Source: a virus
Taxonomy: Duplodnaviria > Heunggongvirae > Uroviricota > Caudoviricetes
IMG/VR virus record: IMGVR_UViG_3300042922_001018
Strand: one strand, 5' to 3'
Length of the DNA: 64,000 bases
Shown here: positions 2-62,765 of the stretch, piece by piece
Layout of the letters: every line of letters begins with the position of its first letter
Position numbering within the stretch: position 1 is the stretch's first letter
The notes under the pieces: model-generated
Database searches by the model: none
What the model saw: the letters and a program-made list of their open reading frames with translations, nothing else
What the model was told of the DNA's origin: nothing
Program-made: the position numbers and the translations under genes

Positions 2-355
2 GACCAGCCGCGCACGCACTCCGGCCGTTTTTCCGTCAAGACCGGAACACAGCCGGAACTTACGCTGCCCATGCTCTCCGGCGGAGACCCGCCACTTCCC
101 CACACTGACACAGGCGAAGGTCCGGGCGTTCAAGTGTCCGTTGACCTTCGCGGTGGGAACTACAAGCACCCGAAGTTCGGAACGTTCCATCGTGACGGTT
201 GCGGCGACGCCGTAGACCTGGAACCCCTTGGGGTTGCGCGCACTTACCGCGATGTGCGAGACTTGGCACGCACCCTCGGTCCGAACTTCAACCTCCCCAC
301 TGCCACCATCAAGCGCAAGTGCGCTGACTGCCTGAAAGCTGCCCTAGGAGACTGA
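2..355 (+). CDS. Tagged-family protein, 5' truncated by window edge; C-terminal Cys/His cluster
   Basis: Frame is open from base 2 (DQPRTHSGRFSVKTGTQPELTL) into ORF 71..355; HxxxC...CxxC near the end. Confidence 0.75.
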   Translation, partial: DQPRTHSGRFSVKTGTQPELTLPMLSGGDPPLPHTDTGEGPGVQVSVDLRGGNYKHPKFGTFHRDGCGDAVDLEPLGVARTYRDVRDLARTLGPNFNLPTATIKRKCADCLKAALGD

Positions 356-356
356 C

Positions 357-1292
357 ATGACGTTCGCAGAGACCGACCACCCGCGCGAGAGCGATGGCAA
401 GTTCGCCGAGAAGACCGGCGCAGCACCGGAGGTAGAGCTGGACGGCTTCCTCCTGTCGCCTGAAGCAGAACCAGTAGACTTCCCGAACGGGCAGCACGTC
501 CTCTACAAGCGATGGGACGGCGATGCCCCGGCCCGTATCCTTCACGGTGACCCGTACGAGGACACCGGCAACCGTGTCTACACGCTCATCATGGATGACG
601 GTAACACGTGGTCCGGCGTCTATGCGGAAGAACTCCGAGTTGACCCGAGCGTCGATTCCACCGACTCGATTGCTCGCTCCGCGTCGTTCGATGCCGGATA
701 CAAGCTGGTCCGCGAGATGACGGACGGCCGGGTCTCCCGTTCGGAGCGTATGCACCTTGTGGACATCGAGGCTGGTATCAACGAGGCCATGAACGAAGAG
801 TGGCGTAACCAGGCTCTCCGCGGCTTCGCGCGTCTTGGCGAAGAGACCGAAGGCACCGAGGACAAGCACCTCCGAGACATCATCGACGAGGCAGTGGACG
901 ACGCCCACGCATCGCTGAAGCGTCGCGGGTTCCTGGAAGGCGAGGAGCGGGAGCTGGCGGTCACGCGGCAGACGGCACTGGCGCTGTTCTACCGCAACCG
1001 TATCGACGACTCGTCGGATGACTGGACGCAGGACCACTACGACCACGTGACTCGCGCATGGCGCGAAGCAGTCGGCCCCATCCACCCTGACGACGAAGCC
1101 CGTCCGGCTTCGTGGGACGCGACGCAGCACACCGCGATGTCGCCTGCCCGGAAGTACGAAGACTACAGCGACAAGGAGCTGCGCGAGCAGCGTGACCGCG
1201 CTTGGTCGGAGTACCGCGCAGACGGCGAACCCGGCGCCCGTCGTGCAGCTCAGGTGTTGGACGCTGCGGCCGAGCACCGCGGACTTCAGTGA
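357..1292 (+). CDS. Tagged-family protein, unknown cargo
   Basis: Starts MTFAETDHPRESDGKFAEKTGAAPEVEL; SD aggag upstream. Confidence 0.85.
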   Translation: MTFAETDHPRESDGKFAEKTGAAPEVELDGFLLSPEAEPVDFPNGQHVLYKRWDGDAPARILHGDPYEDTGNRVYTLIMDDGNTWSGVYAEELRVDPSVDSTDSIARSASFDAGYKLVREMTDGRVSRSERMHLVDIEAGINEAMNEEWRNQALRGFARLGEETEGTEDKHLRDIIDEAVDDAHASLKRRGFLEGEERELAVTRQTALALFYRNRIDDSSDDWTQDHYDHVTRAWREAVGPIHPDDEARPASWDATQHTAMSPARKYEDYSDKELREQRDRAWSEYRADGEPGARRAAQVLDAAAEHRGLQ

Positions 1293-1822
1293 CCTTCGTC
1301 GCGACGGAGCGTGTGAACCCCACTGGGTCCACCGGCCGTGAAGGGTTTGACCCTTCACAACATCCACGGTCATCCTCCGGCCGGTTCACTGAGAAGACTG
1401 GCTCCTTGCCGGAGGTGGAACTCGGCTATCGGTGGAAGGAAATCTGGGAGTTCGATGACGGCTGGACGATGGCTGTCGAGCAGGCGAACAGTTACTACCC
1501 CGAGTTCAAGCGCGGGTGGCTCCGATTGCCAGACGGCACCCCTATCGGCATGATTCACTGGTCCACGAAAGACGCAGAGCCGTGCATCTGCGACATCGAA
1601 GTGCGCGACGAGTATCGCGGGCAGGGCTTGGCGAAGCGGCTCATTCATTCGGTCGAAGACCAGATTGGTGGGCGACTACACACGACAGGTAGCTTCACAC
1701 CGGAAGGCCGCGCCGCGCTGGCAGCCGCCACACCACAGGCCTCAGGGTACCCGGCGAGGCAGCATGATTTCAGGTCGATGACGTTCATCCATGACTGGGA
1801 TGCGCTCCAGACGAACAGCTAA
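1289..1822 (+). CDS. Tagged-family protein with GNAT acetyltransferase cargo
   Basis: GTG overlaps the previous stop (GTGA); FDPSQHPRSSSGRFTEKTGSLPEVEL; acetyl-CoA motif IEVRDEYRGQGLAKRL. Confidence 0.8.
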   Translation: MTFVATERVNPTGSTGREGFDPSQHPRSSSGRFTEKTGSLPEVELGYRWKEIWEFDDGWTMAVEQANSYYPEFKRGWLRLPDGTPIGMIHWSTKDAEPCICDIEVRDEYRGQGLAKRLIHSVEDQIGGRLHTTGSFTPEGRAALAAATPQASGYPARQHDFRSMTFIHDWDALQTNS

Positions 1823-1833
1823 GAAGCTCGTTG

Positions 1834-1842
1834 CCGCCTACA
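1834..1842 (+). promoter_or_regulatory. CCGCCTACA box, 7 nt before ATG
   Basis: ccgcctaca-ttcgggc-ATG(1850). Confidence 0.75.
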
Positions 1843-1849
1843 TTCGGGC

Positions 1850-2230
1850 ATGACATTCTCCGAGACTGAGGTCCGCCGAGACGCGGGCGGTAAGTTCGCC
1901 GAGAAGCTTGGCGCTTCGCCGGAGGTAACTCTTCCCCCGGCGCCGTTCGAGAGCTACGAGGTACGCGGTGTCAAGCCGGGTGACCTCGTGGACACTGAGA
2001 GCAACACGCACGACGGGCCTTTCGACTTCGCGTTCATGCACAACCGAGCTTTCCGCCAGGCATGGAAGTCTGCGGGGCGTCCGCGCCATCTTCGCGTTCT
2101 ACAGGCGGGCCGAGCGAAAGAGGACGGCCACACGGACAACGCCATCATTTTCGACCTCGGCGGGGAGCCGTTCGAGTTGACTTTCCATCGCGACCGCGAG
2201 ATGCTTGTTTCGCGCCCGAACAAGGAGTGA
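1850..2230 (+). CDS. Tagged-family protein
   Basis: MTFSETEVRRDAGGKFAEKLGASPEVTL. Confidence 0.85.
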   Translation: MTFSETEVRRDAGGKFAEKLGASPEVTLPPAPFESYEVRGVKPGDLVDTESNTHDGPFDFAFMHNRAFRQAWKSAGRPRHLRVLQAGRAKEDGHTDNAIIFDLGGEPFELTFHRDREMLVSRPNKE

Positions 2231-2233
2231 GCC

Positions 2234-3034
2234 ATGAGCTTCAACGAGTCTGAAATCAACCGCGCCACTGACGGCAAGTTCTCCGAGAAGGAGGGCACCC
2301 CGCCTGAGGACGGCTTCGCGAAAGAGCTGGCTGACACTCTCTGGTCCATCCGTGAGCGTGACGCCCGAGAAGGCGTCTGCGGCGTGGACTACGACCACAC
2401 CGAGACCACCACGTATGAGGACGACGAACTCGTTCAGTGGAAGTGCGAAGAGTGCGGTGCGGAGGGCGAAGTTGACCTCACCGAAGAGCCGGGCGACCTT
2501 CTGTCGGGCAAGACGATGGATGACCTGATGGGCCGCACCGCCGACGAGCCGGGCGCTCTGAACGGTTTCCGTCTGGACGACCTCATTATCTACGAAGACG
2601 GCGAAGACGGCGACGATGAGGACGACGACTTCGACATCACCCGCAAGTTCTCGTACCAGCGTTCCTACCCAGGTATGAGCGGCATCCCCGCAACTTCCAC
2701 CAAGCACTGCGCTGAGTGCGGGGACGAGATGCGGGTGAACGCCGAAGGAGTCTCGAACCACATCGCCGCCGACGGCGGCATCGACTACGACAAGGACGCT
2801 CAGCACGCAGCCATTGACGACGCCGCGTACGGCGACGCCGATGAGAGCAATGTGCTCTTCGTTACGGATGACGGGTTCGAGGTTCAGCGTGCCACCGACG
2901 AAGGCTCGTACGCGGTGTACGCGGCTGACGGCACGTTCCTCACGAACGTCACCAGCGCATCGGAGGACCACCTCAGCATCGAGGATGAAGTTCGAGAGCG
3001 TCTGGCAGAGCTGAAGGCCGCTAGCGGACAGTAA
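2234..3034 (+). CDS. Tagged-family protein, very acidic, CxxC motifs
   Basis: MSFNESEINRATDGKFSEKEGTPPE; SD aaggag; CEEC and CAEC; D/E runs. Confidence 0.85.
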   Translation: MSFNESEINRATDGKFSEKEGTPPEDGFAKELADTLWSIRERDAREGVCGVDYDHTETTTYEDDELVQWKCEECGAEGEVDLTEEPGDLLSGKTMDDLMGRTADEPGALNGFRLDDLIIYEDGEDGDDEDDDFDITRKFSYQRSYPGMSGIPATSTKHCAECGDEMRVNAEGVSNHIAADGGIDYDKDAQHAAIDDAAYGDADESNVLFVTDDGFEVQRATDEGSYAVYAADGTFLTNVTSASEDHLSIEDEVRERLAELKAASGQ

Positions 3035-3041: not shown

Positions 3042-3050
3042 CCGCCTACA
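3042..3050 (+). promoter_or_regulatory. CCGCCTACA box
   Basis: ccgcctaca-gacggtc-ATG(3058). Confidence 0.75.
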
Positions 3051-3057
3051 GACGGTC

Positions 3058-3858
3058 ATGACATTCGCCGAATCTGAGCACCCGCGCGCCACCGACGGTA
3101 AGTTCGCTGAGAAGGTCGGCGCCGCGCCTTCCATCTCGCTGGACGTGAAGCCACCCATCACGGCGAAGGTCGTGCATCAGCAGTGGATTGGCGATTACGC
3201 GGTCGATACCGGCGAGGAGACGGAGTTCGACATCCGGGCGGTTCTCGACGCGGCGCCCCTGGAGGACATTCGCTCGATGGAAAGCTCTGGCGACCGGGAC
3301 TGGCTTCACTTCGATGCTGTCAACGCTGGCCTCATTGAACCCGCCGAAGGACCGTTCTACATCGACACGTTCGCTGCTGAAGAAGACCTCGAAGAGTACA
3401 TCGCGGCTCGCGAGGCGGCAGGCCAGGAAGACCCGGTAGCGGAGCTGGAGCCGTCTCAGAAGCTTGTCCGCGAACGCGTTGGCGCGGCACTCCAGGGCGC
3501 TCGCGGCGCTCTCCCGCTGTCCATCATCACCATGGACGGGAGCGAAGACGGAGACCTCAGCGCAAGCCGCACCGGGCATCTTGTTGCTGACGGCATCCTG
3601 CGGGCGCAGCACTCTTTGAACGCGCTCGCGGTGGACTCCGCACGTCTCGATGAGTCCGACCGTAAGCACCTGTCCGACATCGACCAGCTTCGTGACCTCA
3701 TCAGCTACGACCGTCTGAACCAGGCCACGGTGACCCCGGAGAGCCGACAGAAGGTTGTTCGTATCGTCGCTGGTCTGAACGACTACCTGTGGAACCGTGA
3801 AAACCACCTGTCTCAGCAGGACACGCTCGAATCTCAGCCCGCCGCATCTGTCGAGTGA
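3058..3858 (+). CDS. Tagged-family protein
   Basis: MTFAESEHPRATDGKFAEKVGAAPSISL. Confidence 0.85.
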   Translation: MTFAESEHPRATDGKFAEKVGAAPSISLDVKPPITAKVVHQQWIGDYAVDTGEETEFDIRAVLDAAPLEDIRSMESSGDRDWLHFDAVNAGLIEPAEGPFYIDTFAAEEDLEEYIAAREAAGQEDPVAELEPSQKLVRERVGAALQGARGALPLSIITMDGSEDGDLSASRTGHLVADGILRAQHSLNALAVDSARLDESDRKHLSDIDQLRDLISYDRLNQATVTPESRQKVVRIVAGLNDYLWNRENHLSQQDTLESQPAASVE

Positions 3859-3921: not shown

Positions 3922-4353
3922 ATGACCTTTCTCGTTGACCTTCTCATGCCGAAGCGTCCGCCTCGCGGCGAGCGCGAACCCGGCCTGTCAACCATGGCCA
4001 TCGCCGAAGTCCCTTTCAAGCACGAAAGAAATCGTGACGCATTCGAGCCGTGGGCGCTGCGCCCCGTCATCCACACGCTCCACCCCGTCATCACTCATGT
4101 GACCGATGAGGGAGACCCGCACTGGGAGGTCTGGTTCGTCCACAACAACCGACCGGTTGTTCTCGCGGTCCCTTCTCCCGGCGTCGGGGAACTGTCGATG
4201 GATGACCTCACTGAGTACCTGTCGAAGTCGGTCTCCCATGAACGTCAGGGCACCGCCTCCGCGGATGAGCTGCGGGCTGCGCGTTTCGCCCGCCGCGTCC
4301 GCGAGATGGTGTGCCTGGAGACATGGCCAGAACCACAGCCGCCTACCATTTGA
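3922..4353 (+). CDS. Hypothetical protein (untagged)
   Basis: ORF fills the gap; TAGACT -10-like hexamer upstream. Confidence 0.6.
   Translation: MTFLVDLLMPKRPPRGEREPGLSTMAIAEVPFKHERNRDAFEPWALRPVIHTLHPVITHVTDEGDPHWEVWFVHNNRPVVLAVPSPGVGELSMDDLTEYLSKSVSHERQGTASADELRAARFARRVREMVCLETWPEPQPPTI
4339..4347 (+). promoter_or_regulatory. CCGCCTACC variant box
   Basis: ccgcctacc-atttgac-ATG(4355). Confidence 0.65.
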
Positions 4354-4354
4354 C

Positions 4355-5113
4355 ATGACCTTCGACCCGAATGACCACCCACGCTCGACAGACGGCACCT
4401 TCGCAGAGAAGGTCGGTTCGAGCGCGGAGGTGAAGCTCTCCGTTAGTGAGCTGGACCACGGGCTATTCGACGATGTGCGGACACAGGCTGGCGAAGCGTA
4501 CGAGACGTACGGTCGAGCGCTCGCTACCGAGCGTATCCAGCGCAAATACCCGACCGCTGTGCGCGCCACGGTCGCGGTAACCCAACACGATGAGGTCACG
4601 GTCTCTTCTATCGAAGATGCAGACGGCGTACTCCTCTGGGAGGCGAGCGAACTGAACGAAGGCGACGCTATCCACCACGCTGCCGCAAGCATCCCGGCCG
4701 ACGCTGTGCAGAACGGTTCGTACCTCGACCTCGGCGGAACACCTGACTCGCAGGAGGCGTTCACGCACTACCACCGCGCTGCAACTGAGACGCAGGCGGT
4801 CGCGGTGCAGGCGCTAGCGAACAGCATCCGTCTCCGCTTCCCCGAGGCGGTATCGGTGGAGATGGACGCGGACGACGCGGATGACGATGACCCGGACATC
4901 GAGCGCCGCCCGACCGCGGTGTTCAACGCTGCTGGCGAGAAGATGTGGACTTCAGGCTCGGGCGATGAGAGCATCTTCGCTCCCAACAGCCGCGACCGCG
5001 AGTACCTTCAGTACGCGAACTTCGAGTACGACGGTGACACGGATGCGATGGTCGTCCGCCTGCCTGTGAACCTTTTCGATGAGTCCACGTGGCCTGAGTC
5101 CACACCTTTCTGA
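4355..5113 (+). CDS. Tagged-family protein, acidic
   Basis: Internal ATG of ORF 4106..5113: MTFDPNDHPRSTDGTFAEKVGSSAEVKL. Confidence 0.85.
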   Translation: MTFDPNDHPRSTDGTFAEKVGSSAEVKLSVSELDHGLFDDVRTQAGEAYETYGRALATERIQRKYPTAVRATVAVTQHDEVTVSSIEDADGVLLWEASELNEGDAIHHAAASIPADAVQNGSYLDLGGTPDSQEAFTHYHRAATETQAVAVQALANSIRLRFPEAVSVEMDADDADDDDPDIERRPTAVFNAAGEKMWTSGSGDESIFAPNSRDREYLQYANFEYDGDTDAMVVRLPVNLFDESTWPESTPF

Positions 5114-5132: not shown

Positions 5133-5954
5133 ATGACTTTCAGCGAGACCGATGTCGTACGCGACGCCGCGGGTAAGTTCTCGGAGAAGACCGGCTCGGC
5201 GCCGGACATCTCAGTGACCCCGCCCAAGAAGACATACATCTACCGCGTGGAAGGCGACGACCACGAGACCGAGGACGTAGAAGCATCCAGCGAGGAAGAG
5301 GCGCTGAACATCGCCGCAGAGCTGTTCGAGGAGCGCTACAGCGGTGACGAAGAAGATGATGACGATGACTCCGAACCGACGGATGTCCGTGACCTTCTGT
5401 TCGTGAAGGCGGTCTACGAAGGCGACATCAACGACTACGACGACGAGTGGACGAAGGTCACGCCGGGCAAGCACTTCCACGACCCGAACTACGAGCATGT
5501 CGCTGGACGATACGCGGGCTACGAGGTGAAGAACTACCGGAAGCTCCCCATCGGGATGGAAGGTGGCGCATTCACCGCGAGCATCTGGCGTGACGGCAAG
5601 CGTGTCATGCTTGTCGAGAACGCGGGCAACGGCGGCGCGAACACGTACACTGACCTGAGCAGCCCGAAGACCCCGCTTCGGCACCGTGGCGAAGAGATTG
5701 ACCGCTTCAAGAAAACCGCAAGCGCCATGTACGGCCCGGACAAGTACGAGAGCGATGATGCGCTCTTCGCGTTCGTGCAACTCGGTAGCGAGGTTGACCG
5801 CTTGGCCCGCATCAACGGTTGGTCGCGTACAGAGACCGCCGAAGCGATGGCAGAGGACTACGAGAAGCAGATGGCCGAGTTCGGAAGCAAGGCGGATGAA
5901 GTTGAACTCGCGGCGCTCCGCGACCCGTCCATCATCTCGCGCCTGACCGACTGA
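5133..5954 (+). CDS. Tagged-family protein, acidic
   Basis: MTFSETDVVRDAAGKFSEKTGSAPDISV; SD aaggag. Confidence 0.85.
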   Translation: MTFSETDVVRDAAGKFSEKTGSAPDISVTPPKKTYIYRVEGDDHETEDVEASSEEEALNIAAELFEERYSGDEEDDDDDSEPTDVRDLLFVKAVYEGDINDYDDEWTKVTPGKHFHDPNYEHVAGRYAGYEVKNYRKLPIGMEGGAFTASIWRDGKRVMLVENAGNGGANTYTDLSSPKTPLRHRGEEIDRFKKTASAMYGPDKYESDDALFAFVQLGSEVDRLARINGWSRTETAEAMAEDYEKQMAEFGSKADEVELAALRDPSIISRLTD

Positions 5955-5993: not shown

Positions 5994-6692
5994 GTGACCC
6001 GGAAAATCCTGACTGCCATCGGTGCGGTATTCGTGTTGTCTGGACTCGGTCTCCTCAGCTTCCTCGGCGTCGGGTTCTTCGCGGACCAGAGCGAGCTTGA
6101 CCAGAAACAGCAGGACACGCAGGCGCTCATCCAGGAATGGGACGGTGGTTCGGCTACCCGCGTTGACACCGCGCCGACTGGTGACATCCCCGTTACCACG
6201 CGGCCAGCTACCTACGACGAGTTCGGCGTTCTCTATGTCCCGCGATGGGGCGCAGACTATGTCGCGCCCATCCTCGAAGGCGACAAGACGAAGGAAGTCT
6301 CTTCGTGGCACGGTGTTGACCACTACCCGAGTTCGCAGATGCCGGGAGAGCTGGGCAACTTCGTCGTCACCGGCCACAACGGCCGGAACGAGACGGGGCG
6401 CTTCTCTCACCTGTCGCAGAGCGAAGTAGGCGACCTCGTCTATGTCGAAACCGCAGACGGTTGGTACACCTACAAGCTGACTTCGTTCGAGACCATCGAC
6501 CCGTCCGAGAACGAAGTGCTTCTCCCCGTCCCTCGTGAGGAAGGCGTCGCGCCTACGAAGAGCGTCATCACGCTCATTTCCTGCACGCGCGAATGGTGGG
6601 GAACCACCGGGCGTTACGTTGCCTACGGCGACTTCGTAGAGTTCACCCCGCGCGCGGCGGGCGCCCCTGCCGATGTAACGGCGATGCGTTGA
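5994..6692 (+). CDS. Sortase (class E-like)
   Basis: N-terminal TM; HYPSSQMPGELGNFVVTGH; TLISC and downstream Arg catalytic pattern. Confidence 0.9.
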   Translation: MTRKILTAIGAVFVLSGLGLLSFLGVGFFADQSELDQKQQDTQALIQEWDGGSATRVDTAPTGDIPVTTRPATYDEFGVLYVPRWGADYVAPILEGDKTKEVSSWHGVDHYPSSQMPGELGNFVVTGHNGRNETGRFSHLSQSEVGDLVYVETADGWYTYKLTSFETIDPSENEVLLPVPREEGVAPTKSVITLISCTREWWGTTGRYVAYGDFVEFTPRAAGAPADVTAMR

Positions 6693-6820
6693 CCGCTCCT
6701 GCGCGCTGGAACTACCGGCGAAGTAGTTAACCAGACACAGCACCATTCCGTCTTGCCACTGTCAAGATAGGGCGCTCGTACTTGTCCGCCAAACGGATGA
6801 CACCGTGTATACTGATGTAC

Positions 6821-9800
6821 ATGCTGCGAAAGTCATCTATCGCCCTCGGGGCCACTCTCACTCTTGTCGGTTCAATGATTGCACTGCCGGGCGTTGCCCT
6901 CGCAGCGCCGGGAGACGCCGTCTCCATCCCTGATACAAGCCTCCGCGAAGCCGTCAAGGCCGCGGTCGGCCACCAGCCTGACAACCTCGCCGACCCCACC
7001 GAGGGGGAGATGGCGTCCATCACCAACCTGAACCTGAGCGGTCGGAACGTCACCGACCTCACGGGTATCCAGTACGCGACGGCCCTCACCTCGCTCAACC
7101 TCTCCGGCAATGCGGTCACGGACATTACGCCGCTGACGACGTTGACGGGTCTGGTCACCTTGGACCTCTCGCTCACGCCGGTCACCACCATCGAGCCGCT
7201 CGCGGGCAAGACCGCTCTCGCCTCACTCGACCTGACCGCGACCAACTCCAACGAGACCGCCGCGGAGACGACCTTCTCGACCCTCACCGGTCTGGAGTTC
7301 CTCGACCTGTCCAGCACTGACCTCACCGAGGAGGCTGCCGCAGCGACCAGCGTCATCGAACTCATCATCGACGACAACCTCGCCACGAACCTGGACGGGT
7401 ACGAGGCGCTCACCAACCTGCGTGCGCTGTACGCAGACAACAACCCCTTCGAGAACCTCGACGGTCTGAAGGGCAAGAACCTCGACTACCTCGGGGCTGG
7501 CGTTACCCAGGTGCGTGACCTTTCCGGCATCACCGCCCAGAACGGTCGCGTGCTCACCGAGGTTCCGCTCTCTGCGGGCGTCGGCGAAGATGTGGACCTC
7601 ACGGTGACTGGCGTCGGAACCACAGGCCAGGTCGAGCTGTCCGTCGCCGCTGGCACCTACGACCCGGACGAGCAGACCGTCTCCTACCCGGCTGCGGGCG
7701 CGTTCCAGGCATCCTGGAACCAGCTTTCGGGTGAGTCCTTCCAGTTCACCGGCAACCTCAACATCGAGGTTGCCGCGACCGCCCCTTCGGGTGTTACGGA
7801 CTTCGATGTCTCTGGCCGCATCGCATCGGCCAACCTCAACTGGGCGCTTCCGAACACCAACGGCCTCGGCGACATCGACGAGTACACCATCGTGCTCTCC
7901 AACGATGGTTTCGTCACTTCCACCCAGGTCTCGGCACCGGGCGACGCAACGTCTCTCGTCATTCCGGACCTCGAAGGCGGCAACTACACCGCGCGCATCA
8001 CGTACACGACGACCGAAGGCGCGCTCTCCCCTGAGTCCACCGCCGCATTCACGGTCTACGCCGAGCCTTTCCCCGTTCCGGGCAATGTCGATGCCTCCTA
8101 CATCGAGGCGAGCGATTCGATTGGCTTCCGGTGGACCGGCGGTGCGCCCAGCTACATCCTGACGGTCACGGATGACATGGGTGAGACGACCGAGTTCACG
8201 GTCAACGACACCAGCATCACTATCCCTGCTTCCGAGTTCGCTGACCCGGCACGCCTGACATTCACCGTCGAAGCCGGTGACGACCAGGGGTCGCTCGGCG
8301 CCGTTTCTACCCCGACTGTCATCAACACGGAGACTGGCTACGTCGGCCCCGTGACTGTCGGCGCGGCTGTCACCAACGTCGTAGCTGGCGAGATGGACGC
8401 AGAGCGCATGGCCGTCCCGGTCAGCTTCGATGTCCCGGAGGGCACGCAGAACGTCCGCTACACCTACGACGGCGGCGCAGGCATCGGCCTTGTGACGGCG
8501 TTCGAGACGCTGGAAGCTGGCCCCAACACCATCTACATTCCGGTTCGGTCGGGCCAGGAGTACAGCGTCGTCATCGCCGCTCGCACCGAGAGCAGCGACT
8601 ATGTGGCCGCTCCCGCTGTTGAGTTCGAGGCTCCAGAACTCGGTTCTGTAACGGGCCTCGTCGGTACTCTCGGTGACGGCAACGTCACGCTGAACTGGAA
8701 CCCGGTCGCGGGCGCCGCAAGCTACGAGGTCACTGTGATTCTCGAAACGACACAGACCCCGGTCTTCATCCCGGTAGACGGAACGACCGCAACACTGACC
8801 TTCAGTGACTTCCCTGCGAACAACGAGCAGTACGAAATCGGTGTCCGCGCGGTGGACGCGAACGGCGGCAAGGGTCTCTTCTCCACTATCCTCGAAGTGA
8901 ACCCCGGCGCCGAGTACGTCGGCCCGAGCAACGGGATGCTCCCGGCGCCCACCAACCTCGCCAGCACCTACAACGCGGCAGACAACACGTTCACCTTCAC
9001 GTGGACGGGTGACGCGGCGGCTGACCGTTACATCCTCTCGATGAACGGCATGGATTACCTGGCGGACGAGCCGACTCTGACAGTTTCGGCCGGTGCCGCG
9101 GGTACCGAGTACGATGTCATCGTCTACCAGCGGGCTATCGGCGGGCAGTACGGCCCCGGTACCTCCATCGACGTGGTGACCCCGGATGACGGCCCTGTCG
9201 TTCCGAGTGAACTGAGCGGTGTCGTCGTGGACGGCGATGTCGTCGCTAGCTGGCCCGCAATCCCCGGCGCTGTCAGCTACGAAGTCGGTATCGGCGACCT
9301 CGACCGGAACTCGGGTGACCTCGTTCCCGTGGACGGCACTTCCGTCACTGTCCCGGACGGCGCTACGCGTACGTTCATCCTGACGGTGGCTGGTCTCAAC
9401 GCCGACGGCGAGCAGGTCCAGGGTACGAGCTACCAGGGCATCTGGAACGCTGGCGGGACCGAGTTCCTCGAACTGACCCCGCCGCCCGCAGGCATCGAGG
9501 TCGGCACTGTCACCGCCACTGACGAAGCGGTGACGGTCGATTGGGAAGCCATCGACGCCGACTTCTACCGCGTGATGGCGACCAACGGTACTGAGACCCT
9601 CGTCTCGCCGGTCCTGACCGGAGACGTGTCCTCCTACGCCTTCGACCGCGCAGCGTTCGCTCCTGGTTCGACCTGGACCTTCACGGTGACCGCGCGTGAC
9701 GCATCCTCCGTGTGGTCCGCGCCTGCCGGTGCTGAACTCGCCTTCCCCGCTGATGGCGGTTCGGGCGACGGCGGCTCCGGCGATGGTTCTGGTGACGGTG

Positions 9801-13083: not shown

Positions 13084-13090
13084 GCCCGCA

Positions 13091-13099
13091 TGTAGGCGG
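13091..13099 (-). promoter_or_regulatory. CCGCCTACA box
   Basis: Minus strand ccgcctaca-tgcgggc-ATG(13083). Confidence 0.75.
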
Positions 13100-42259: not shown

Positions 42260-42266
42260 GCCGAGA

Positions 42267-53992: not shown

Positions 53993-53999
53993 GCCCAGT

Positions 54000-54008
54000 T
54001 GTAGGCGG
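54000..54008 (-). promoter_or_regulatory. CCGCCTACA box
   Basis: Minus strand ccgcctaca-actgggc-ATG(53992). Confidence 0.75.
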
Positions 54009-55823: not shown

Positions 55824-58800
55824 ATGGCCTTCGTCCACGGACACGTACACTCCGAGTTTTCAGCGCTCGATGGGATGGTGCGGCTCAACGCTGCCTTCCA
55901 GAAGGCGAAGGAGGCAGGGCAGACCGCTCTTGCCATCACCGACCACGGTACGCTCGGTGGCATCTGGAAGGCCCGGAAGTTCGCGAAGGAAACCGGCGTC
56001 AAGCTGATTCCCGGCGTCGAGGTCTACGTCGCCATCGGCTCCCGCTTCGAGAAGAACAGCATCGAAGTCCCCATCGAGTCCCCGCTCTCCTCTGACGATG
56101 CCTGCTCGCACGGTGACGACGAGCACAGCCACGGCATCGACCTGTTCGCCGACGAGGGTCTCGCTGACGAGCACACCGCCGAGACCGACGCTCGCGAAGC
56201 CCGCGGCATTCTCGCTGACCCCGACAGCACGGAGGCGCAGAAAGCGGCTGCCCGAGCTACCCTCGGAAACCCGACCGACGAAGCGCCCGTGGACCCGGAC
56301 GCCGGAGATGCCAAGGACGGCATCCGCAAGAAGCACTACTGGCACCTCACCCTCCTCGCACGGAACGCTGCCGGATGGCAGAACCTCATCGCCATTCAGA
56401 ACGAGGCGTTCGCAACCGGCATCTACTACAAGCCGCGCATCGACTTCGACCTCCTGAAGAAGCACTCCGAAGGCATCATCGCTCTCACCGGCTGCCTCGG
56501 TGGCGTCGTCGCTGAGCCGGTCGGTCGTGCCTACGACGCCCGCAACCGCTCCGAAGAGGCCCGCGGACTCCTGCGCACCATCGCTGAACGGGTCGCCCAG
56601 ACCAACGGCATCGACATGGACACGCTCGGAACGGCCCTCGTCTCCGTGGACCGCCGATTCGAGAGCGTGACCGCCATGCTCGAAGAGGCACGTGACCCCG
56701 AGGGCGAGCCAGTCTCCGACGCCGAGCGCCTCATCACTCAGGAGATGCTCGACTTCCACCGCATCCGCAAGACTGCCGACGAGCGCGTCGCCGAAGGCAC
56801 CGGACAGGCTCGCGGCAACATCGAGACCCTCATCGAAGCGCTCGGCCACGAGAACGTGTACATCGAGGTCATGGAGCACGGCATCCCGTCCGAGCAGGCC
56901 ATCATCGGCGACATTGCCGCGCTCGCCGACGAGTACAAGCTCCCGCTGTTCGCCTCGAATGACGCCCACTATCTCGAAGAGGCTGACCACGAAGCCCACG
57001 AGGCGTGGCTCGCCATGCAGTCGAAGAGCACCCTCGCCGACCCGAAGCGTTACCGTTTCACCGGCCACGGATTCTTCCTCCGCACTGAAGAGCAGATGCG
57101 CGCCCTCCGTGAGGACACATGGTGGCAGGACGCTGTCTCCAACACCCAGACCGTTGCAGACCGGGTCGAGGAAGACATCATCCCGGACCCGGCACCCCGC
57201 ATGCCGCGCTTCCAGTTGCCGGAAGGCGAGACTCGCACCAGCCGTCAGTTCATGATTGACCTCATCTTCGCGGGTGCCGCTGAGCGGTACGGCGCGAACT
57301 GGCGTGAAGAGCGCCCCGACGTGAAGGAACGCCTCAACTACGAGTTCAAGGTCATCGACTCGATGGGCTTCCTCGACTACTTCGGCATCGTGTGGGACGT
57401 GATTTCGTGGGCACGGTCCACACGACCCGTCTACCCCGGTGGCCCGGACAAGAAGCCCATCCTCGTCGGTCCCGGCCGTGGCTCCGCCGCAGGTTCGCTC
57501 GTGTCCTACTGCCTCCGTATCGTCAACGTGGACCCGCTCGAATACAACCTCCTCTTCGAGCGTTTCCTAGAGCCGGGCCGACCGGACTGGCCCGACATCG
57601 ACATGGACTACGAGAAGTCCCGCCTGGACGAAGTCCTCGCGTACATGATGCACAAGTGGGGCGTCCGCTCCGTGGCTCGTATCGGCTCGTTCGCCATTTC
57701 GAAGTCCCGTGCCAGCATCAAGAACGCCGCGCGCGTGCTCGGTGTCAAGGGCGGCGCCGGAGACAAGCTCTCGAAGCTCGTACCTGTCGCATTCGGTCAG
57801 CCGTGGCCCATCGAGAAGATGTTCGACGAGACGAAGGCCGAAGGAAACGACTTCCGCAAGCAGCTCGCCCGCTTCGGCGACGACGGCGAGCGCATCATCG
57901 ACCTCGCGAGCAAGTTCGAAGGTCTCGTCACTGGTGTCGGCATCCACGCTTGTGGTGTCGTCGTCGCGGACATCGACCTCGATGAGCTGGTGCCCCTGCG
58001 CCAGGACACCTCGAAGATTCAGGGTGAGCAGCTCTCCGCTGTCACCGCGTGGGACTCGAAGGACATCGAAGCCGCGGGCCTCCTGAAGCTCGACTTCCTG
58101 TCGCTGCGTACGCTCGACATCATCTCGCTGGCGACCGAGCACATCCAGGAGACGACCGGCGAGGTCATCGACCCCGACGACCTCCCGAACCCGAACGACC
58201 TGACCAACCCGCGCGTCGCAGCGGCATACCGTCTCCTCGTCGAGGGCAAGACCTCCGGCATCTTCCAGTCGGAGAGTGCTGGTATGACGAAGGTCTACCA
58301 GAACATCCAGCCGTCTGGCCTGGAAGACCTCAGCGCCGTGGTGGCGCTGTTCCGGCCCGGCCCCCTCGCAGCGCAGATGGACGTTCGTTACGCCGACCGT
58401 AAGCACGGCCGCGAGTCCGTGACCTACGACTACATCACGCTGGACAAGGCGGAGCAGGAAGTCATCGACGGCGTTCTCGGCGTCACCTACGGTACGACCG
58501 TGTACCAGGAGCAAATCATGCAGCTCTCGCGCGTCGTCGCGGGCTTCGATGCGAAGCTCTCGAACAAGATGCGCAAGGCCATGGGCAAGAAGCTCAAAGA
58601 GGTCATGGATGAGGTCGAAGTCCTCTTCATCGAAGGTGCGCAGAAGAACGTCTCCGTCGCCGGGGAAGCGAAGCTTGCGTTCAAGGAAGCGACCGCTCGT
58701 CGCCTCTGGGACTTGCTGAAGGGTAACGCCGACTACCTGTTCAACAAGTCACACTCCGTCGCGTACGCGCAGGTCGCGTTCATCACCGCGTACCTGAAGG

Positions 58801-60266
58801 CAAACTGGCCCGCCGAGTTCGGCGCCGCCGTTCTCGCGACCACGGAGAAGAAGGAAAGCCGCGTCGCCACCATCCGGTCGCTGACCGCGGAAGGCATCGA
58901 AGTTCTCGCGCCCTCCGTCAACAAGAGCCGCCCGATGACGTTCCCCGAAGGCTCCAGCGCTGTTCGCCTGGGCCTCACGGAAATCAAGGGTCTCGGCAGC
59001 ATCGGTGAGGCCATCTACAAGCACCGCGTCTGGACCGACTCGGAGGGCGCCCAGAAGTCGGACCCGTACCACGACCTCCGCAACGTCGCCTTCCGCGTGA
59101 AGGATGAAGCGGGCAAGTCCATCCAGGTGAACCACCTCGAAGCCCTCGTCGAGTCCGGCGCTTGCGATGAGTTCGGTCCGCGCATGGGTCAGTTCATGGT
59201 CTGCCGCACCGTTGTGCGGACGGACATGACACCGCTCGACATGGAGTGGGGGCCGGTAGAGCGTGCCTCTCGCCAGCGTGCGCGTCTGTACACCTCGCTC
59301 GGCGAGCACCCGCTGACGACCGTGCAGCCCTACATCAAGTCCTGGCGTACGCCGGACAGCGTCGTCTACGGGAACACTGTCTACGGCCAGTCTCCTCTGC
59401 CCATCGGCCGCGTTCTCCAGAGCGCGAAGGACGGCGACAACGCTCTCACCCTCGGCCTCCTCGCCGCATGGTCCGAGCGCACCTACGCGGGTGGCCGCAT
59501 GGCGAACATCACGCTGGAAGGCTCCGGCCACTCCATCGACTGCGTCATCTGGGACGGCTCGCTCACCGAAATCAAGGCCGTCTACGACGGTGAGGCGCCG
59601 ATGCCTGGTTCCATCATCGCGATTTCGGGACGCGTCGTTCTGAACCTCGTAGAGGTCGAAGACGACGAAGGCAACGTCTCCGACATCTCGAAGAAGGAGA
59701 TGATGGTCACGAAGGCTTTCCCCGTCCCCATCCCCGACGCGCCTGTCGGAGAGCTGAAGCCCTGCGCTATCAGCGTCCCCGTCCCGATGCCGCTACCTGA
59801 GCCGGTCAAGAAGACTCGCGCGAAGAAGGAGACGAAGACTGAAGACACTCAGCCGACGCTCGCCGTCGGCGTCATCGACGCTCCGGACATCTTCGACGAC
59901 CTGTTCTTCGCGGACCCGTCGCTGGCTGAAGACTATGCCCCCGCCCCCACCGAGTTCACGCCCGATGGTACGCCGGTCAGCCAGCCTGCGGAGCCAGTGA
60001 CCACCGACCTCGTGGTCATGAACGTCCCGGTTCTTGTGACGAGTCGCGTGCCGAAGGGCATGATGAAGCGCCATCTCCAGAACTGCGGATGGGGCGATGT
60101 CGCGGAACAGGTTCTCGCGACGTACAAGACGAGCGGTCACGGCACGGAAGACAAGTTCTACCCGGTGTCTTCCGGCGACATCCGCAAGGGCGTCTACGTC
60201 TCAACGCGGCTGTTCGGTGGCGGTCTCACGTCGATGGAAGAGGTTCCCGACCTCCTCTGGAGTTGA
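55824..60266 (+). CDS. dnaE: DNA polymerase III alpha subunit
   Basis: PHP HVHSEFSALDG, TDHG, NDAHY; GRGSAAGS; PDIDMD; HACG; KLDFL; RPGP; YQEQ; FNKSH; OB fold. Confidence 0.96.
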   Translation: MAFVHGHVHSEFSALDGMVRLNAAFQKAKEAGQTALAITDHGTLGGIWKARKFAKETGVKLIPGVEVYVAIGSRFEKNSIEVPIESPLSSDDACSHGDDEHSHGIDLFADEGLADEHTAETDAREARGILADPDSTEAQKAAARATLGNPTDEAPVDPDAGDAKDGIRKKHYWHLTLLARNAAGWQNLIAIQNEAFATGIYYKPRIDFDLLKKHSEGIIALTGCLGGVVAEPVGRAYDARNRSEEARGLLRTIAERVAQTNGIDMDTLGTALVSVDRRFESVTAMLEEARDPEGEPVSDAERLITQEMLDFHRIRKTADERVAEGTGQARGNIETLIEALGHENVYIEVMEHGIPSEQAIIGDIAALADEYKLPLFASNDAHYLEEADHEAHEAWLAMQSKSTLADPKRYRFTGHGFFLRTEEQMRALREDTWWQDAVSNTQTVADRVEEDIIPDPAPRMPRFQLPEGETRTSRQFMIDLIFAGAAERYGANWREERPDVKERLNYEFKVIDSMGFLDYFGIVWDVISWARSTRPVYPGGPDKKPILVGPGRGSAAGSLVSYCLRIVNVDPLEYNLLFERFLEPGRPDWPDIDMDYEKSRLDEVLAYMMHKWGVRSVARIGSFAISKSRASIKNAARVLGVKGGAGDKLSKLVPVAFGQPWPIEKMFDETKAEGNDFRKQLARFGDDGERIIDLASKFEGLVTGVGIHACGVVVADIDLDELVPLRQDTSKIQGEQLSAVTAWDSKDIEAAGLLKLDFLSLRTLDIISLATEHIQETTGEVIDPDDLPNPNDLTNPRVAAAYRLLVEGKTSGIFQSESAGMTKVYQNIQPSGLEDLSAVVALFRPGPLAAQMDVRYADRKHGRESVTYDYITLDKAEQEVIDGVLGVTYGTTVYQEQIMQLSRVVAGFDAKLSNKMRKAMGKKLKEVMDEVEVLFIEGAQKNVSVAGEAKLAFKEATARRLWDLLKGNADYLFNKSHSVAYAQVAFITAYLKANWPAEFGAAVLATTEKKESRVATIRSLTAEGIEVLAPSVNKSRPMTFPEGSSAVRLGLTEIKGLGSIGEAIYKHRVWTDSEGAQKSDPYHDLRNVAFRVKDEAGKSIQVNHLEALVESGACDEFGPRMGQFMVCRTVVRTDMTPLDMEWGPVERASRQRARLYTSLGEHPLTTVQPYIKSWRTPDSVVYGNTVYGQSPLPIGRVLQSAKDGDNALTLGLLAAWSERTYAGGRMANITLEGSGHSIDCVIWDGSLTEIKAVYDGEAPMPGSIIAISGRVVLNLVEVEDDEGNVSDISKKEMMVTKAFPVPIPDAPVGELKPCAISVPVPMPLPEPVKKTRAKKETKTEDTQPTLAVGVIDAPDIFDDLFFADPSLAEDYAPAPTEFTPDGTPVSQPAEPVTTDLVVMNVPVLVTSRVPKGMMKRHLQNCGWGDVAEQVLATYKTSGHGTEDKFYPVSSGDIRKGVYVSTRLFGGGLTSMEEVPDLLWS

Positions 60267-60271: not shown

Positions 60272-60280
60272 CCGCCTACA
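60272..60280 (+). promoter_or_regulatory. CCGCCTACA box (leadered variant)
   Basis: Box, then SD aaggag, then ATG 60303. Confidence 0.65.
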
Positions 60281-60302: not shown

Positions 60303-61127
60303 ATGTCCACTCACGAGTGGGAGGGCGGGACTATCCAGCTCCCGTCCGACCAGGCAACCGCTATTCGGCATGCCATCGTCGCGCGACACAATGCCATCAG
60401 CGAGCGAGCTTTCGCTGCCGCTAAAGAGGTATGGGACAAGGCTACGCCTGCCCAGCGGAAGGACTCGGACTACCTCGGCGACAAGCTCTCGGACAAGCTC
60501 ATCTCCAAGTCGTACGGCTGGTACTCCCGGCCGCGTGATGACTACGGCGCTGAGGCAGCCGCTCTGGACCGCGCGCAGAACCTTCTGGAGCTGCGCAGGT
60601 ACGGTAAAGACCCACGTGCCCCACAGAAGAAGAACCTGCCCCTCGTCGGTAAGACGGAGACGCAGTTCGAGAGCGACAACGCAACCGTCGTCTTCGACAC
60701 CAAGAAGAACACGCTCCGCTGGAGCGCAGACGGTAACCACGGAGTCGAGAACGCTCACGGCGAGTGGCTCTGGGAAGCGGTGGATGCCGAACTCGACAAG
60801 GTGAAGTGGACACGTGGCAGTGGCGGCGTTATCGGAGGCGGCAACGAGTACCGCCCCAGCGAGGTTGCGAGCAAGGGCTACGGCCCGACGGGACTGAAGG
60901 ACGCACCCCAGGTCACACAGCCGTTCATGAAGGCTGACGGCACCCGAGTAACCCAGCGCGAGATTGACGAAGCTCGGGCGAAGCAGTTGCGCGGCCAGGC
61001 CCGCGAGAAGAACGCTGAAGCTCGCGCTCTGAAAGCACGCGCCGCAGCCCTCGGCTCGCAGGACCGGCGAACCAACGGTCAGTTCGACTACCGTCGCGGC
61101 TCATACCCAGAGGTGCGACTGCGGTAA
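60303..61127 (+). CDS. Protein carrying the family tag at its C-terminus
   Basis: Ends QDRRTNGQFDYRRGSYPEVRLR. Confidence 0.8.
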   Translation: MSTHEWEGGTIQLPSDQATAIRHAIVARHNAISERAFAAAKEVWDKATPAQRKDSDYLGDKLSDKLISKSYGWYSRPRDDYGAEAAALDRAQNLLELRRYGKDPRAPQKKNLPLVGKTETQFESDNATVVFDTKKNTLRWSADGNHGVENAHGEWLWEAVDAELDKVKWTRGSGGVIGGGNEYRPSEVASKGYGPTGLKDAPQVTQPFMKADGTRVTQREIDEARAKQLRGQAREKNAEARALKARAAALGSQDRRTNGQFDYRRGSYPEVRLR

Positions 61128-61152
61128 CGCTCAGTCGATGTAGACTGCTGAT

Positions 61153-61566
61153 ATGGCTCACATAACCTCCGGCGTAGACCAGTGGGGTGCATATATCTGC
61201 ATCGACGGATACGACCCGTCGCCCGGCCAGCGAGGCTGGTACAAGAGCATGCGTTCGCCGGTAGGCCTCGGCCGCAGCAATCTCGTGGACGCAGAGGACT
61301 GGCGGAGGCGTACAGTCCGAGAGATTCGCCATCTGATGCGGAAGCTGAACCTTCCCGATGGTACGAACTTTCACCAAATCATCCGCGCCCACCAAGGCCT
61401 GCCTCTGACATGCGAACCCGAGCGCGGCCCCAGCAGGGAAGCAGAAGACTGCCGTCTCATCGCTGAGTTCGAGTGGGAAGCGCGACAGAACTGGGTGGCC
61501 TGTCCCGCAAGTCTCGACGAGCTGCTGGAACGTCATTTCCGGAACAGTCGCGAGCTTACAAGCTGA
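61153..61566 (+). CDS. Hypothetical protein
   Basis: TAGACT-N6-ATG. Confidence 0.55.
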   Translation: MAHITSGVDQWGAYICIDGYDPSPGQRGWYKSMRSPVGLGRSNLVDAEDWRRRTVREIRHLMRKLNLPDGTNFHQIIRAHQGLPLTCEPERGPSREAEDCRLIAEFEWEARQNWVACPASLDELLERHFRNSRELTS

Positions 61567-61633
61567 TGTCGGAAGGGTGTTCTAGCCTCTGATGAGAGCA
61601 AAATCAGCGCTGAACAGGGGCGCGTGCAACGCG

Positions 61634-61642
61634 CCGCCTACT
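61634..61642 (+). promoter_or_regulatory. CCGCCTACT variant box (leadered)
   Basis: Box, then SD gaggag, then ATG 61674. Confidence 0.6.
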
Positions 61643-61673
61643 AGCTGATACAGTCATCCACGAGGAGAACCCC

Positions 61674-62765
61674 ATGACTTTCAGTGAGACCAACGTCCGA
61701 CGCGACACGCTCGGCAAGTTCAGCGACAAGCTGGGCAGCGCTCCCGACGCCAGCGTGCTCGCGACTCTCAACGACCCCGCCGAGGAGACCCGCAACGAGC
61801 GTCTCGTCCGCGAGTTCAACCAGCGCCGCTCGCTGCTCCAGAAGGCAGGCTACGCCAAGGCAACCGCACAGGTCGCCGTCGCCGATGTCCGCGAAACTGC
61901 TCGCGACGACGACAAGCGCGCCGACTGGTGGGAGCAGAACTTCGTCACTGGCGAGTTCGCACCGGAGAAGGCGGGCAGCTTCGCCCTCATGCCGGACAAC
62001 TACACCCCTGGCATGACCACCGGCCGCTCCGCCGAAGGCAACCGTCGCACGCACCGCATGCTCTACGAAGGCGCAGGCGTCTCCGTGCGTATGCCGTCGG
62101 CTACCGCCATCAAGCGCTTCTCGGCCGACAACAAGAACCGCTCGTTCGATGTTCCTCTGTCCATCGAGATTGACGGCCAGCAGGTCGCCGGTCACGTCCG
62201 CGTCACCAAGAACGGCCCGAACCAGTGGGGCGTCTCCTCGCTCGGCTTCCCCGGCGACAAGGCCGACCGTGTTTCGGAGGCGGTATCCGCCGTACTCGAA
62301 TCGCGCCGTCCGTCCACCGCGCTCCGCGAGGTCAACAGCCTCATCGAGCGTCGCCGCGAGCGTCTCGCGATGGCGGGCGCCAAGGTCGAGCCTGTCGCAT
62401 CCTCGTTCATCGACGGCATCGGCTACAACGAAGCGGGCAACGAGCTGTACGTCACCATGGGCAACGAGAAGACCGGCGAAGTCCGTGCGTACGCTTACCG
62501 TGTCCCGCGCGACGTGTACCACGCCATCCGCAACTCCGACTCCCCCGGCAAGGCGTACAACGCCCTCGTCAAGAAGGGCGGCGCCGAGCAGGTCGCCGGT
62601 GGCAAGAACAACCCCGCTCAGGTCGGCTTCGACGAGTCCACTGGTCGCTTCTTCAACAAGGCGCGTGGGTTCCGGTTCAGCCGTCACACTGAGGCGGACA
62701 AGAGCGCGAAGCGGTCGCGCACCATCGCTCTGAAGCGCGTCCTCGGAGTACCGGTCAAGGACTAA
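61674..62765 (+). CDS. Tagged-family protein with KTSC domain
   Basis: MTFSETNVRRDTLGKFSDKLGSAPD; SSFIDGIGYN...LYV...Y.Y.VP..VY.....SPGKAYN. Confidence 0.85.
   Translation: MTFSETNVRRDTLGKFSDKLGSAPDASVLATLNDPAEETRNERLVREFNQRRSLLQKAGYAKATAQVAVADVRETARDDDKRADWWEQNFVTGEFAPEKAGSFALMPDNYTPGMTTGRSAEGNRRTHRMLYEGAGVSVRMPSATAIKRFSADNKNRSFDVPLSIEIDGQQVAGHVRVTKNGPNQWGVSSLGFPGDKADRVSEAVSAVLESRRPSTALREVNSLIERRRERLAMAGAKVEPVASSFIDGIGYNEAGNELYVTMGNEKTGEVRAYAYRVPRDVYHAIRNSDSPGKAYNALVKKGGAEQVAGGKNNPAQVGFDESTGRFFNKARGFRFSRHTEADKSAKRSRTIALKRVLGVPVKD

Follow-up and report, generated by a model that had tools for sequence, protein, structure and literature searches.

A portable peptide tag shared by unrelated proteins of a probable conjugative giant plasmid: a candidate label for proteins travelling with mobile DNA

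Twenty-one otherwise unrelated proteins encoded in a single 64,000-nucleotide stretch of DNA (hereafter the window) share a tag of ~28 residues, which is found in 20 listed ORFs and in one further copy at a C-terminus. We propose that this tag is a portable, terminal and flexible docking motif that marks establishment or conflict proteins for travel with conjugating DNA into the recipient. As a reading of sequence, this proposal is about evenly poised between right and wrong, and both the partner of the tag and the delivery of its cargo are things that we infer. Because its core also starts the cargo modules of phage head proteins, the tag is probably a label on proteins that accompany mobile DNA into the next cell.

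The core of the tag reads F-x6-R-x3-G-[KR]-F and is followed by a plasmid-specific tail that closes with E-V-x-L. The initial annotation had assigned the tag to 20 ORFs with R, G, F and G kept; all 20 carry the motif, and the four residues (positions 10, 14, 16 and 21) are invariant. A profile derived from the tags, as that annotation had suggested, separates them from untagged frames: 19 listed tags score 48-63 bits and the truncated first ORF 23 bits, while the best untagged frame reaches 7.9 bits. Since this profile was built from the same tags that it scores, a Markov chance control was added. The pattern R-x3-G-[KRTQ]-F-x4-G has 21 six-frame matches in the window, where 40 simulations gave 0.65 on average and never more than 2, and a chance origin was rejected on these counts. 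Other details of the earlier description need adjustment. Most of the ORFs begin with MTF as described, but ORFs 41013, 41618 and 42259 have other starts; the position is N-terminal in general, but the tag of ORF 1289 starts 17 residues in; and the first ORF, placed at the window edge, truly starts 14 bases before it. The list was correct for all 20 ORFs and overlooked the twenty-first copy, which ends ORF 60303-61127 and is kept at the C-terminus of its ortholog in a 378-kb relative. Two further tagged genes, also absent from that list, lie just upstream of the window. Among single-copy database matches, the tag lies within 15 residues of the N-terminus in 117 of 120, and the bodies form 62 unrelated clusters. 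No family corresponding to the tag was found in Pfam, PHROGs or PDB sequences, nor any published account of the motif in the literature covered, which excluded subscription journals. The tags, and the promoter-like box that accompanies many of them, lie as follows:

2-67, plus strand: tag of the truncated, 122-aa first ORF, found by the profile
357-440, plus strand: tag heading ORF 357-1292, a 311-aa protein whose body is acidic
1340-1423, plus strand: internal tag, found by the profile, of ORF 1289-1822 (GNAT acetyltransferase by Pfam)
1834-1933, plus strand: box (1834-1842) and tag of ORF 1850-2230
2234-2317, plus strand: tag of ORF 2234-3034, with a ribosome-binding site and no box
3042-3141, plus strand: box and tag of ORF 3058-3858
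4339-4438, plus strand: variant box and tag of ORF 4355-5113
5133-5216, plus strand: tag of ORF 5133-5954, with a ribosome-binding site and no box
10088-11800, plus strand: FtsK/SpoIIIE-type ATPase, kept in related plasmids; a candidate part of the transfer machinery
13000-13099, minus strand: box and tag of ORF 13083-12319
21669-21768, minus strand: box and tag of ORF 21752-21279
23459-23558, plus strand: box and tag of ORF 23475-24263
24265-24364, plus strand: box and tag of ORF 24281-24907
24930-25029, plus strand: box and tag of ORF 24946-25998
29184-29283, minus strand: box and tag of ORF 29267-28236 (DUF8359)
29944-30043, minus strand: box and tag of ORF 30027-29317 (Honk gp72-like body)
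40939-41013, minus strand: shortened tag of ORF 41013-40414, gene 3 of a tagged run
41532-41618, minus strand: tag of ORF 41618-41013
42173-42275, minus strand: box and tag of ORF 42259-41615
53909-54008, minus strand: box and tag of ORF 53992-53495
60272-60280, plus strand: private box before ORF 60303, with longer spacing and a ribosome-binding site; the ortholog in a relative is boxed
61038-61124, plus strand: C-terminal tag copy at the end of ORF 60303-61127
61674-61757, plus strand: tag of ORF 61674-62765 (KTSC domain)

Beyond the tag, these proteins have little in common. Their bodies show no mutual BLAST similarity at E<0.01, in keeping with the divergence reported initially, and none has more than a single Pfam domain that passes the cut-off. 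Among the cargo types named at the time, GNAT (1289) and KTSC (61674) are borne out by Pfam, and most bodies belong to no family. All are soluble proteins of 122-363 aa with no transmembrane stretch. The highest 19-residue hydropathy among them is 1.21; a Sec, Tat or lipoprotein signal peptide was rejected for lack of a hydrophobic core of ~10-19 residues, which agrees with the earlier view. In the predicted structure of ORF 29267-28236 the tag region has a pLDDT under 50 and the body is folded, and a 115-row model of the tag predicts a beta-bridge between R10 and F16. Judging from these models, the tag is flexible and exposed on soluble cargo, as T4SS substrates need. Foldseek returned no match for the DUF8359 body or for the tag model. 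Matches in the Atlas (LPD28, PBECR1, LPD3 and portal-NUDIX clusters) all lie under 0.9 or have a low TM-score and serve as leads only. The body of ORF 30027-29317 is 57% identical to Microbacterium phage Honk gp72, a non-structural and untagged protein, and untagged plasmid orthologs of tagged bodies exist as well. Such comparisons indicate that the tag is portable and has been added onto captured cargo such as the Honk gp72-like protein, which upholds the claim of a shared tag on unrelated cargo. In the KTSC protein, a variant of the tag is kept in about 48 of 57 homologs.

The private box is a leaderless promoter-like element, CCGCCTACA-N7-ATG, which is dedicated to tagged genes and precedes most of them; the initial annotation, which had described no dedicated promoter, has to be amended in this respect. 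Clean box matches stand in front of tagged genes in 13 of 13 cases, and sigA-type boxes in 0 of 24. On an Arthrobacter plasmid, one box subtype precedes tagged genes in 21 of 26 cases and another in 1 of 38 (p=3e-11). The boxed tagged genes may thus be co-regulated, with the box in a promoter-like role. This 9-base box is the only DNA-level motif of the box-tag unit. Indeed, DNA-level conservation of the tags does not exceed that of the protein: codon identity at residues shared among tags is 0.562, against a background of 0.563, and the comparison supports the earlier claim that selection is acting on the tag peptide, not on its DNA. A DNA-repeat artefact was rejected, and a mobile DNA promoter cassette, which should be conserved in its DNA, fits poorly with synonymous sites that are randomised. 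One could still imagine an expression or stability cassette, in which a promoter and first codons spread by recombination and the peptide acts as a leaderless-translation enhancer or protease shield. Box and tag are tightly linked, and some tags contain near-identical stretches of 36-48 bases, at which assemblies break, and which therefore point to recent DNA-level copying of some tags. Apart from the randomised synonymous sites, however, a related box subtype heads 37 untagged genes on the Arthrobacter plasmid, and the conserved C-terminal copy and the internal copies in phage polyproteins cannot act in initiation, making such a cassette quite improbable.

The window is part of the 450-kb soil contig Ga0456364_0000048, which carries VirB4-like and coupling-protein-like ATPase genes; about 92 kb of it was examined directly, including 28 kb upstream of the window. 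Most similar to it are complete Micrococcales plasmids of 400-610 kb, any one of which has up to ~35 tagged genes. Five complete relatives are deposited as plasmids of cultured strains; their VirB4-like ATPase is 44-49% identical, and pilus ATPases and sigma factors are present in all five. The coupling-protein-like gene is 41% identical to a RefSeq-annotated T4SS protein, with only weak P-loop matches in Pfam, and a search of metagenomes with it found one locus. Judged by gene content, the element is probably a giant plasmid of soil actinobacteria, and a conjugative one. Some features count against the conjugative delivery reading: the relatives are typed as non-mobilizable by PLSDB, no canonical relaxase (Replic_Relax included) passed the cut-off in them, and the tagged genes are scattered and not grouped in one leading region. 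Folding the tag together with the coupling-protein-like ATPase gave a score of 0.00, which carries no weight here. Three DNA runs show presence only; they could themselves be the samples of origin.

A giant phage or phage-plasmid whose virion genes escaped recognition, and whose tag serves its own capsid as in the T4 analogy, would account for a core typical of phage head cargo and for the phage-like accessory genes in the window (NAMPT, RNA ligase and DnaE). It is a very improbable alternative: the T4SS-type ATPases are conserved, and no terminase, HK97-type capsid or MuF match was found in the five complete cultured-strain plasmids, in a search with five Pfam families that failed to detect some control phages too. 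Searches with DnaE found generic DnaE loci only among genome contigs and no matches among viral contigs; the window has no tRNA or Rfam matches. The initial annotation had left the destination as a virion or a transfer machine. The VirB4-like and coupling-protein-like genes favour the transfer branch, and the virion branch is the less favoured one given no capsid-type match in five relatives.

Outside the plasmids, the tag core spans bacterial phyla and an archaeal virus. In phage homologs, every effector module of the portal-fused and polyvalent head proteins opens with it; the genes are fused to the portal or adjoin the portal gene, the polyvalent-protein modules headed by the core include ART-PolyVal, peptidase and sigma, and internal tag copies occur in polyproteins. 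A tagged sigma-domain protein, for instance, is found in a plasmid and in a phage polyprotein. In the phage contexts examined, the core always lies in head-cargo genes. Just before it is a putative, phage-specific protease site, with a protein-specific upstream motif (similarity 1.31 within proteins and 0.29 between them), as inferred from motifs picked after inspection. The core is on the cargo side of this putative cut, and the tag would therefore stay on the cargo; since a maturation cut would expose the core at a new N-terminus, the tag would act after capsid loading. In T4, IPI-III have a capsid targeting sequence, a propeptide of 10-19 residues, which loads the protein and which gp21 then cuts off (PMC9026906). 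Like that sequence, the tag is a short N-terminal peptide shared by unrelated cargo and portable to foreign proteins (PMC9026906). Unlike it, the tag has ~28 residues, may be C-terminal and belongs to an element with no detected capsid; the T4 sequence lies before the cut and is removed, whereas the phage tag homologs follow the putative cut, including on portal-tethered effectors. The analogy to T4 capsid targeting drawn initially therefore fails in detail, and direct membership in that family was rejected.

That actinophage head cargo, for example gp67 of Gordonia phage GodonK, has this core as well might also reflect mimicry, in which the plasmid copies a phage cargo tag so that infecting phages take up its proteins into their heads, for defence or for a ride to new cells. 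A plasmid without its own capsid, as far as tested, would fit. However, a tag that follows a putative cut on portal-anchored proteins is unlikely to be a loading signal, and among plasmids the tag has split into several element-specific styles; we regard mimicry as having only a slim chance. Another proposal deserves real weight, unlikely as we think it: an in-cell docking motif that tethers effectors to a universal target (element DNA, ribosome, RNA polymerase or a chaperone), with plasmid proteins never transferred. Phage cargo would need the tag after injection, and plasmid proteins would use it wherever they are made. A core that occurs in different bacterial phyla and also in an archaeal virus implies a universal partner, and action after loading is consistent with this. 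In the NF-YA GxGGRF loop, R283, G287 and F289 contact DNA (PMC12101057) with an R-x3-G-R-F spacing identical to that of the tag, a lead only: NF-YA is eukaryotic, basic and part of a trimer, the tag is net acidic (mean charge -1.7), making plain DNA binding less likely, and neither NF-YA nor any solved structure gave a profile or fold match to the tag. The restriction of the examined phage cores to head-cargo genes and the untagged, non-structural phage homolog of one cargo also speak against in-cell docking.

The proposed travel tag also has parallels in two other known systems. In phages and conjugative elements, polyvalent proteins combine diverse effector domains, and it has been proposed that they accompany the DNA into the new host (PMC5512222). 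The tagged proteins are likewise encoded by an element with VirB4-like and coupling-protein-like genes, and the core heads polyvalent modules; unlike those many-domain chains, the tagged effectors are separate proteins, which are tagged individually and most of which have a promoter-like box to themselves. A term search of Iyer et al. 2017 (PMC5512222) found no tag motif or linker signal. Conjugative T4SS signals, known from F, RP4 and pKM101 (the "conjutome"), serve plasmid proteins that reach recipients by way of a VirB4/coupling-protein machine; they are variable and mostly C-terminal or internal (PMC11288057), a point against the proposal. Soluble cargo is common ground, as are VirB4-like and coupling-protein-like genes carried by the element itself; in contrast, the present system has one conserved motif, dozens of candidate substrates, a dedicated promoter-like class and a core common to phage head cargo. 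A conserved motif on dozens of substrates with their own promoter class is not described in PMC11288057.

How might such a label work? The sequences show that a unit of promoter-like box and tag has been joined to captured genes and that selection on the peptide maintains it. The private box could then be read as one programme in the donor before mating, probably via a plasmid-encoded sigma factor, and something along the route of transfer would take hold of the exposed R-to-F mini-hairpin, so that soluble cargo is handed to the recipient. To our knowledge, portal phages and conjugative plasmids have no protein machine in common, and travelling DNA is therefore the first guess for the partner, with coupling or FtsK ATPases second. 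By comparison, phage head cargo bears this core too; there the putative maturation cut would expose it, and it would act after capsid loading. A broader generalisation, tentative and on balance doubtful, is that one short peptide, common to bacterial and archaeal tailed phages and to giant conjugative plasmids, links proteins of any kind to DNA in transit irrespective of the transfer machine, and that these plasmids made it a dedicated, separately transcribed delivery programme of dozens to ~100 single effectors, including a sigma factor.

Which proteins accompany DNA in conjugation and phage ejection is a largely open question, as known signals are few and variable. The delivery idea is open to direct testing because both cultured plasmid hosts (Pseudarthrobacter chlorophenolicus A6 with pACHL01, and Arthrobacter sp. 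zg-Y1110) and cultured phages with the core (GodonK, Orimi01, phiE131 and HHTV-1) exist. If it is true, a conserved tag that can be searched for would allow the proteins delivered by the little-studied family of 400-600-kb Micrococcales plasmids to be predicted, dozens of uncharacterised proteins would become candidate establishment or anti-defence factors, and phage ejection and conjugative transfer would become linked.

The shared tag is a real feature of the window. Its motif is present in 20 of the 20 ORFs, correctly located, for which the initial annotation had claimed it (consensus M-T-F-x-E-x4-R-x2-D-G-K-F-x-E-K-x-G-x2-P-E-V-x-L), and the residues described there as kept are invariant (R10, G14, F16, G21). 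The core pattern, R-x3-G-[KRTQ]-F-x4-G, gives 21 six-frame matches against 0.65 expected (40 simulations, maximum 2), the 21st being a C-terminal copy at the end of ORF 60303-61127 that also ends its ortholog in a 378-kb relative. Placement at the ORF start holds for most ORFs but not for ORF 1289, where the tag lies 17 residues inside; the ORF listed as '<2' truly starts 14 bases upstream of the window, and two further tagged genes lie immediately upstream. The bodies are indeed unrelated, with no mutual BLAST match at E<0.01, and no membrane segment was found in the tagged proteins. Pfam confirms the GNAT and KTSC cargos and names only DUF8359 besides. No family model or paper was found for the tag motif. 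At 29130-29267 (-), the tag carries a 19-residue insertion, absent in 19 of 19 homologs, that repeats the tag's own distal half, a recent duplication within the tag.

Selection on the peptide, as originally proposed, withstood a check for conservation at the DNA level: among 19 tags, 56.2% of 2,182 identical-residue pairs use the same codon, against 56.3% expected from background codon usage. By codon position, identity is 0.60/0.68/0.44 (positions 1/2/3). Some tags nevertheless have 36-48 near-identical bases in common, enough to break assemblies. Such stretches, combined with random-like codon sharing, suggest that the unit was probably spread by recombination and kept by selection on the peptide. 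In the AlphaFold model of the DUF8359 protein, residues 1-50 have pLDDT under 50 with a well-folded body behind, and modeling with 115 aligned tags yields no more than a short turn plus an R10-F16 bridge (pLDDT 79, pTM 0.27), which predicts a mini-hairpin, not a domain.

Most tagged genes also share a promoter-like box, CCGCCTACA, found 13 times in the window where 0.56 copies would be expected. Across the window and 19.6 kb upstream of it, this box stands ahead of 13 genes with a start codon about 7 bases on and a close upstream stop, and 13/13 are tagged, whereas a sigA-type extended -10 box at equal distance precedes 24 ORFs, of which 0/24 are tagged (p about 4e-10). Where a tagged gene lacks the box, it lies downstream of a boxed gene or comes with a ribosome-binding site. 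Promoter and tag could together form an expression or stability cassette, an improbable reading in our estimate. Leaderless transcripts are typical of Actinobacteria, and the box-to-start spacing fits them. A near-perfect sigA extended -10 box also lies about 6 bases ahead of the start in many untagged genes (e.g. 5994, 15015, 26008, 55719), which suggests that leaderless transcripts are used across most of the element.

The window begins at position 238,260 of a 450,372-bp JGI contig that is also present in soil runs. Its DnaE is nearest (37-45% identity) to 375-608-kb plasmids of Curtobacterium, Arthrobacter, Pseudarthrobacter and Paenarthrobacter, which carry orthologs of many other window genes.

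Further features of the window (coordinates, strand, product)
15015-17288, +, DinG-type helicase
19010-19411, -, small heat-shock protein
22265-22903, -, RNA ligase
27662-28198, -, 2H phosphoesterase-like protein
42288-42971, -, Bax-inhibitor-1-like membrane protein
50854-51708, -, Dam-type adenine methylase
54058-55719, -, treble-clef repeat/REase/Mom-like fusion
55824-60266, +, DnaE of 1,480 aa, longer than chromosomal DnaE

Upstream on the same contig are an 863-aa VirB4-like ATPase (44-49% identity in five such plasmids), a 1,419-aa FtsK and an 840-aa protein with 41% identity to a plasmid pS16 protein annotated as T4SS DNA-transfer protein; genes for pilus ATPases and for sigma factors occur in all five complete relatives. 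TerL_ATPase, Terminase_6C, Phage_capsid and MuF had no match in these five, nor Terminase_6N in the four tested, families that also failed to detect some control phages. The relatives yielded no relaxase above cut-off. Where the initial annotation had left capsid or portal and conjugation genes as alternative companions of the tag, co-occurrence on this contig and in the related plasmids favours the latter (VirB4-like and T4SS-like genes) over the former. The element is likely a conjugative megaplasmid, a grading held at this level because of the missed control phages, the lack of a relaxase above cut-off and the roughly 92 kb of contig directly examined; that it is instead a cryptic phage seems quite improbable.

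Several other loci deserve mention. The RNA ligase, 2H phosphoesterase-like, small heat-shock and Bax-inhibitor-1-like genes, with repair and stress functions, are scattered among the tagged genes. At 5994-9994 (+), a sortase gene precedes that of an LRR/fibronectin-III surface protein of ~1,040 aa, a candidate adhesin that could serve in attachment or mating contact, and the protein at 38416-39582 (+) has a prepilin-like N-terminus and homologs near the pS16 pilus ATPase region. A phosphoribosyltransferase and NAMPT (34696-36268, -) form an NAD salvage pair, kept in related plasmids, which could counter NAD-depleting defences. Ahead of the coupling-protein-like gene, some 23-24 kb upstream of the window, lies a non-coding stretch of 1.1 kb (L176:4329-5473), a candidate origin of transfer or replication; pACHL01 and pS16 have 1.6-1.9 kb gaps at the matching position.

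The tag was found in all five related plasmids. Full readings gave roughly 35 tagged genes by eye in pS16 (a regular expression gives 17-23) and no fewer than 22 in the Arthrobacter zg-Y1110 plasmid, in several styles that retain G-x-F and the distal E-x-x-L throughout, nearly all behind a related box, CCGC-N-CACA. In the Arthrobacter plasmid, box subtype splits tagged (21/26) from untagged (37/38) genes (p=3e-11). One tagged and boxed protein there (L168:8045-9064, -) weakly matches sigma-70 region 2 (E=3e-4) and is possibly a delivered sigma factor. By sequence comparison, gain and loss affect the tag as one unit: in ORF 30027 a tag precedes a body that, from residue 4 onward, has 57% identity to gp72 of Microbacterium phage Honk. 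The phage protein is untagged, and its gene neighbours an RtcB ligase in a group of small genes close to the end of the genome. The plasmids, too, have untagged orthologs. The tag is retained in 20/20 DUF8359 and about 48/57 KTSC homologs.

A profile search (E<=0.001) returned 498 representatives. Among the best 150, 120 are single-copy, with 117 of these tags within 15 residues of the N-terminus and bodies in 62 clusters; the other 30 are long or repeated proteins in which multiple copies stand a median 272 residues apart, with modules such as ART-PolyVal, peptidase, FtsK, sigma and RelA. One such multi-copy gene lies directly 3' of a Mu-type portal gene. Among cultured viruses, the core also occurs in GodonK gp67 (gene after portal), in HHTV-1 gp13 (between terminase and gpF), and in the C-terminal extension of the portal-position protein of Orimi01 and phiE131. 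In the latter pair (L123:2270-4381, Pseudomonas phage Orimi01; L124:2611-4890, Burkholderia phage phiE131), a shared linker-site-tag junction precedes different C-terminal modules, by eye ART-like and PBECR-like. Immediately before each copy, long proteins carry a protein-specific short motif: positions -7 to -2 score a similarity of 1.31 within and 0.29 between proteins, compared with 0.32/0.16 further upstream and 0.21/0.21 downstream. The GodonK motif, a pattern picked after inspection, occurs 20 times in 3,718 residues of protease, portal and capsid precursor and 8 times in about 7,000 elsewhere. These motifs look like maturation-protease sites; if so, each released module starts with the tag, by cleavage in phages and by translation in plasmid proteins. 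The earlier analogy to T4 internal proteins does not hold in detail, as the T4 capsid-targeting propeptide is cut off (PMC9026906) whereas the phage-homolog tag lies on the cargo side of the putative site. Membership of that class was rejected, since the tag lacks removal, a defining feature, the sites themselves being putative. The tag should act after capsid loading, because a portal-fused module is in the head to begin with, and a polyprotein would need just one copy for loading. That tagged plasmid proteins hitchhike on infecting phages is highly improbable.

A partner shared by portal phages from three bacterial genera, by an archaeal virus and by a conjugative plasmid would in the first place be DNA. 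The R/G/F spacing equals that of NF-YA R283/G287/F289, which contact DNA (PMC12101057). The tag has a net negative charge, though, and searches showed no homology. Docking of tagged proteins within the cell, without transfer, is a rather unlikely alternative. To the proposal that the tag marks proteins for travel with DNA and delivery to the recipient we give about an even chance. Polyvalent proteins (PMC5512222) and conjugative protein transfer (PMC11288057) follow a similar cargo logic, but tagged plasmid proteins are single-domain and the tag is only a putative signal, so neither class includes them as defined. Under the delivery proposal, tagged proteins would be produced under a transcription programme of their own, grasped by the R-x3-G-x-F hairpin and passed to the recipient. 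There they would aid plasmid establishment, and the tagged sigma-domain protein of the Arthrobacter plasmid would suit the start of plasmid transcription.
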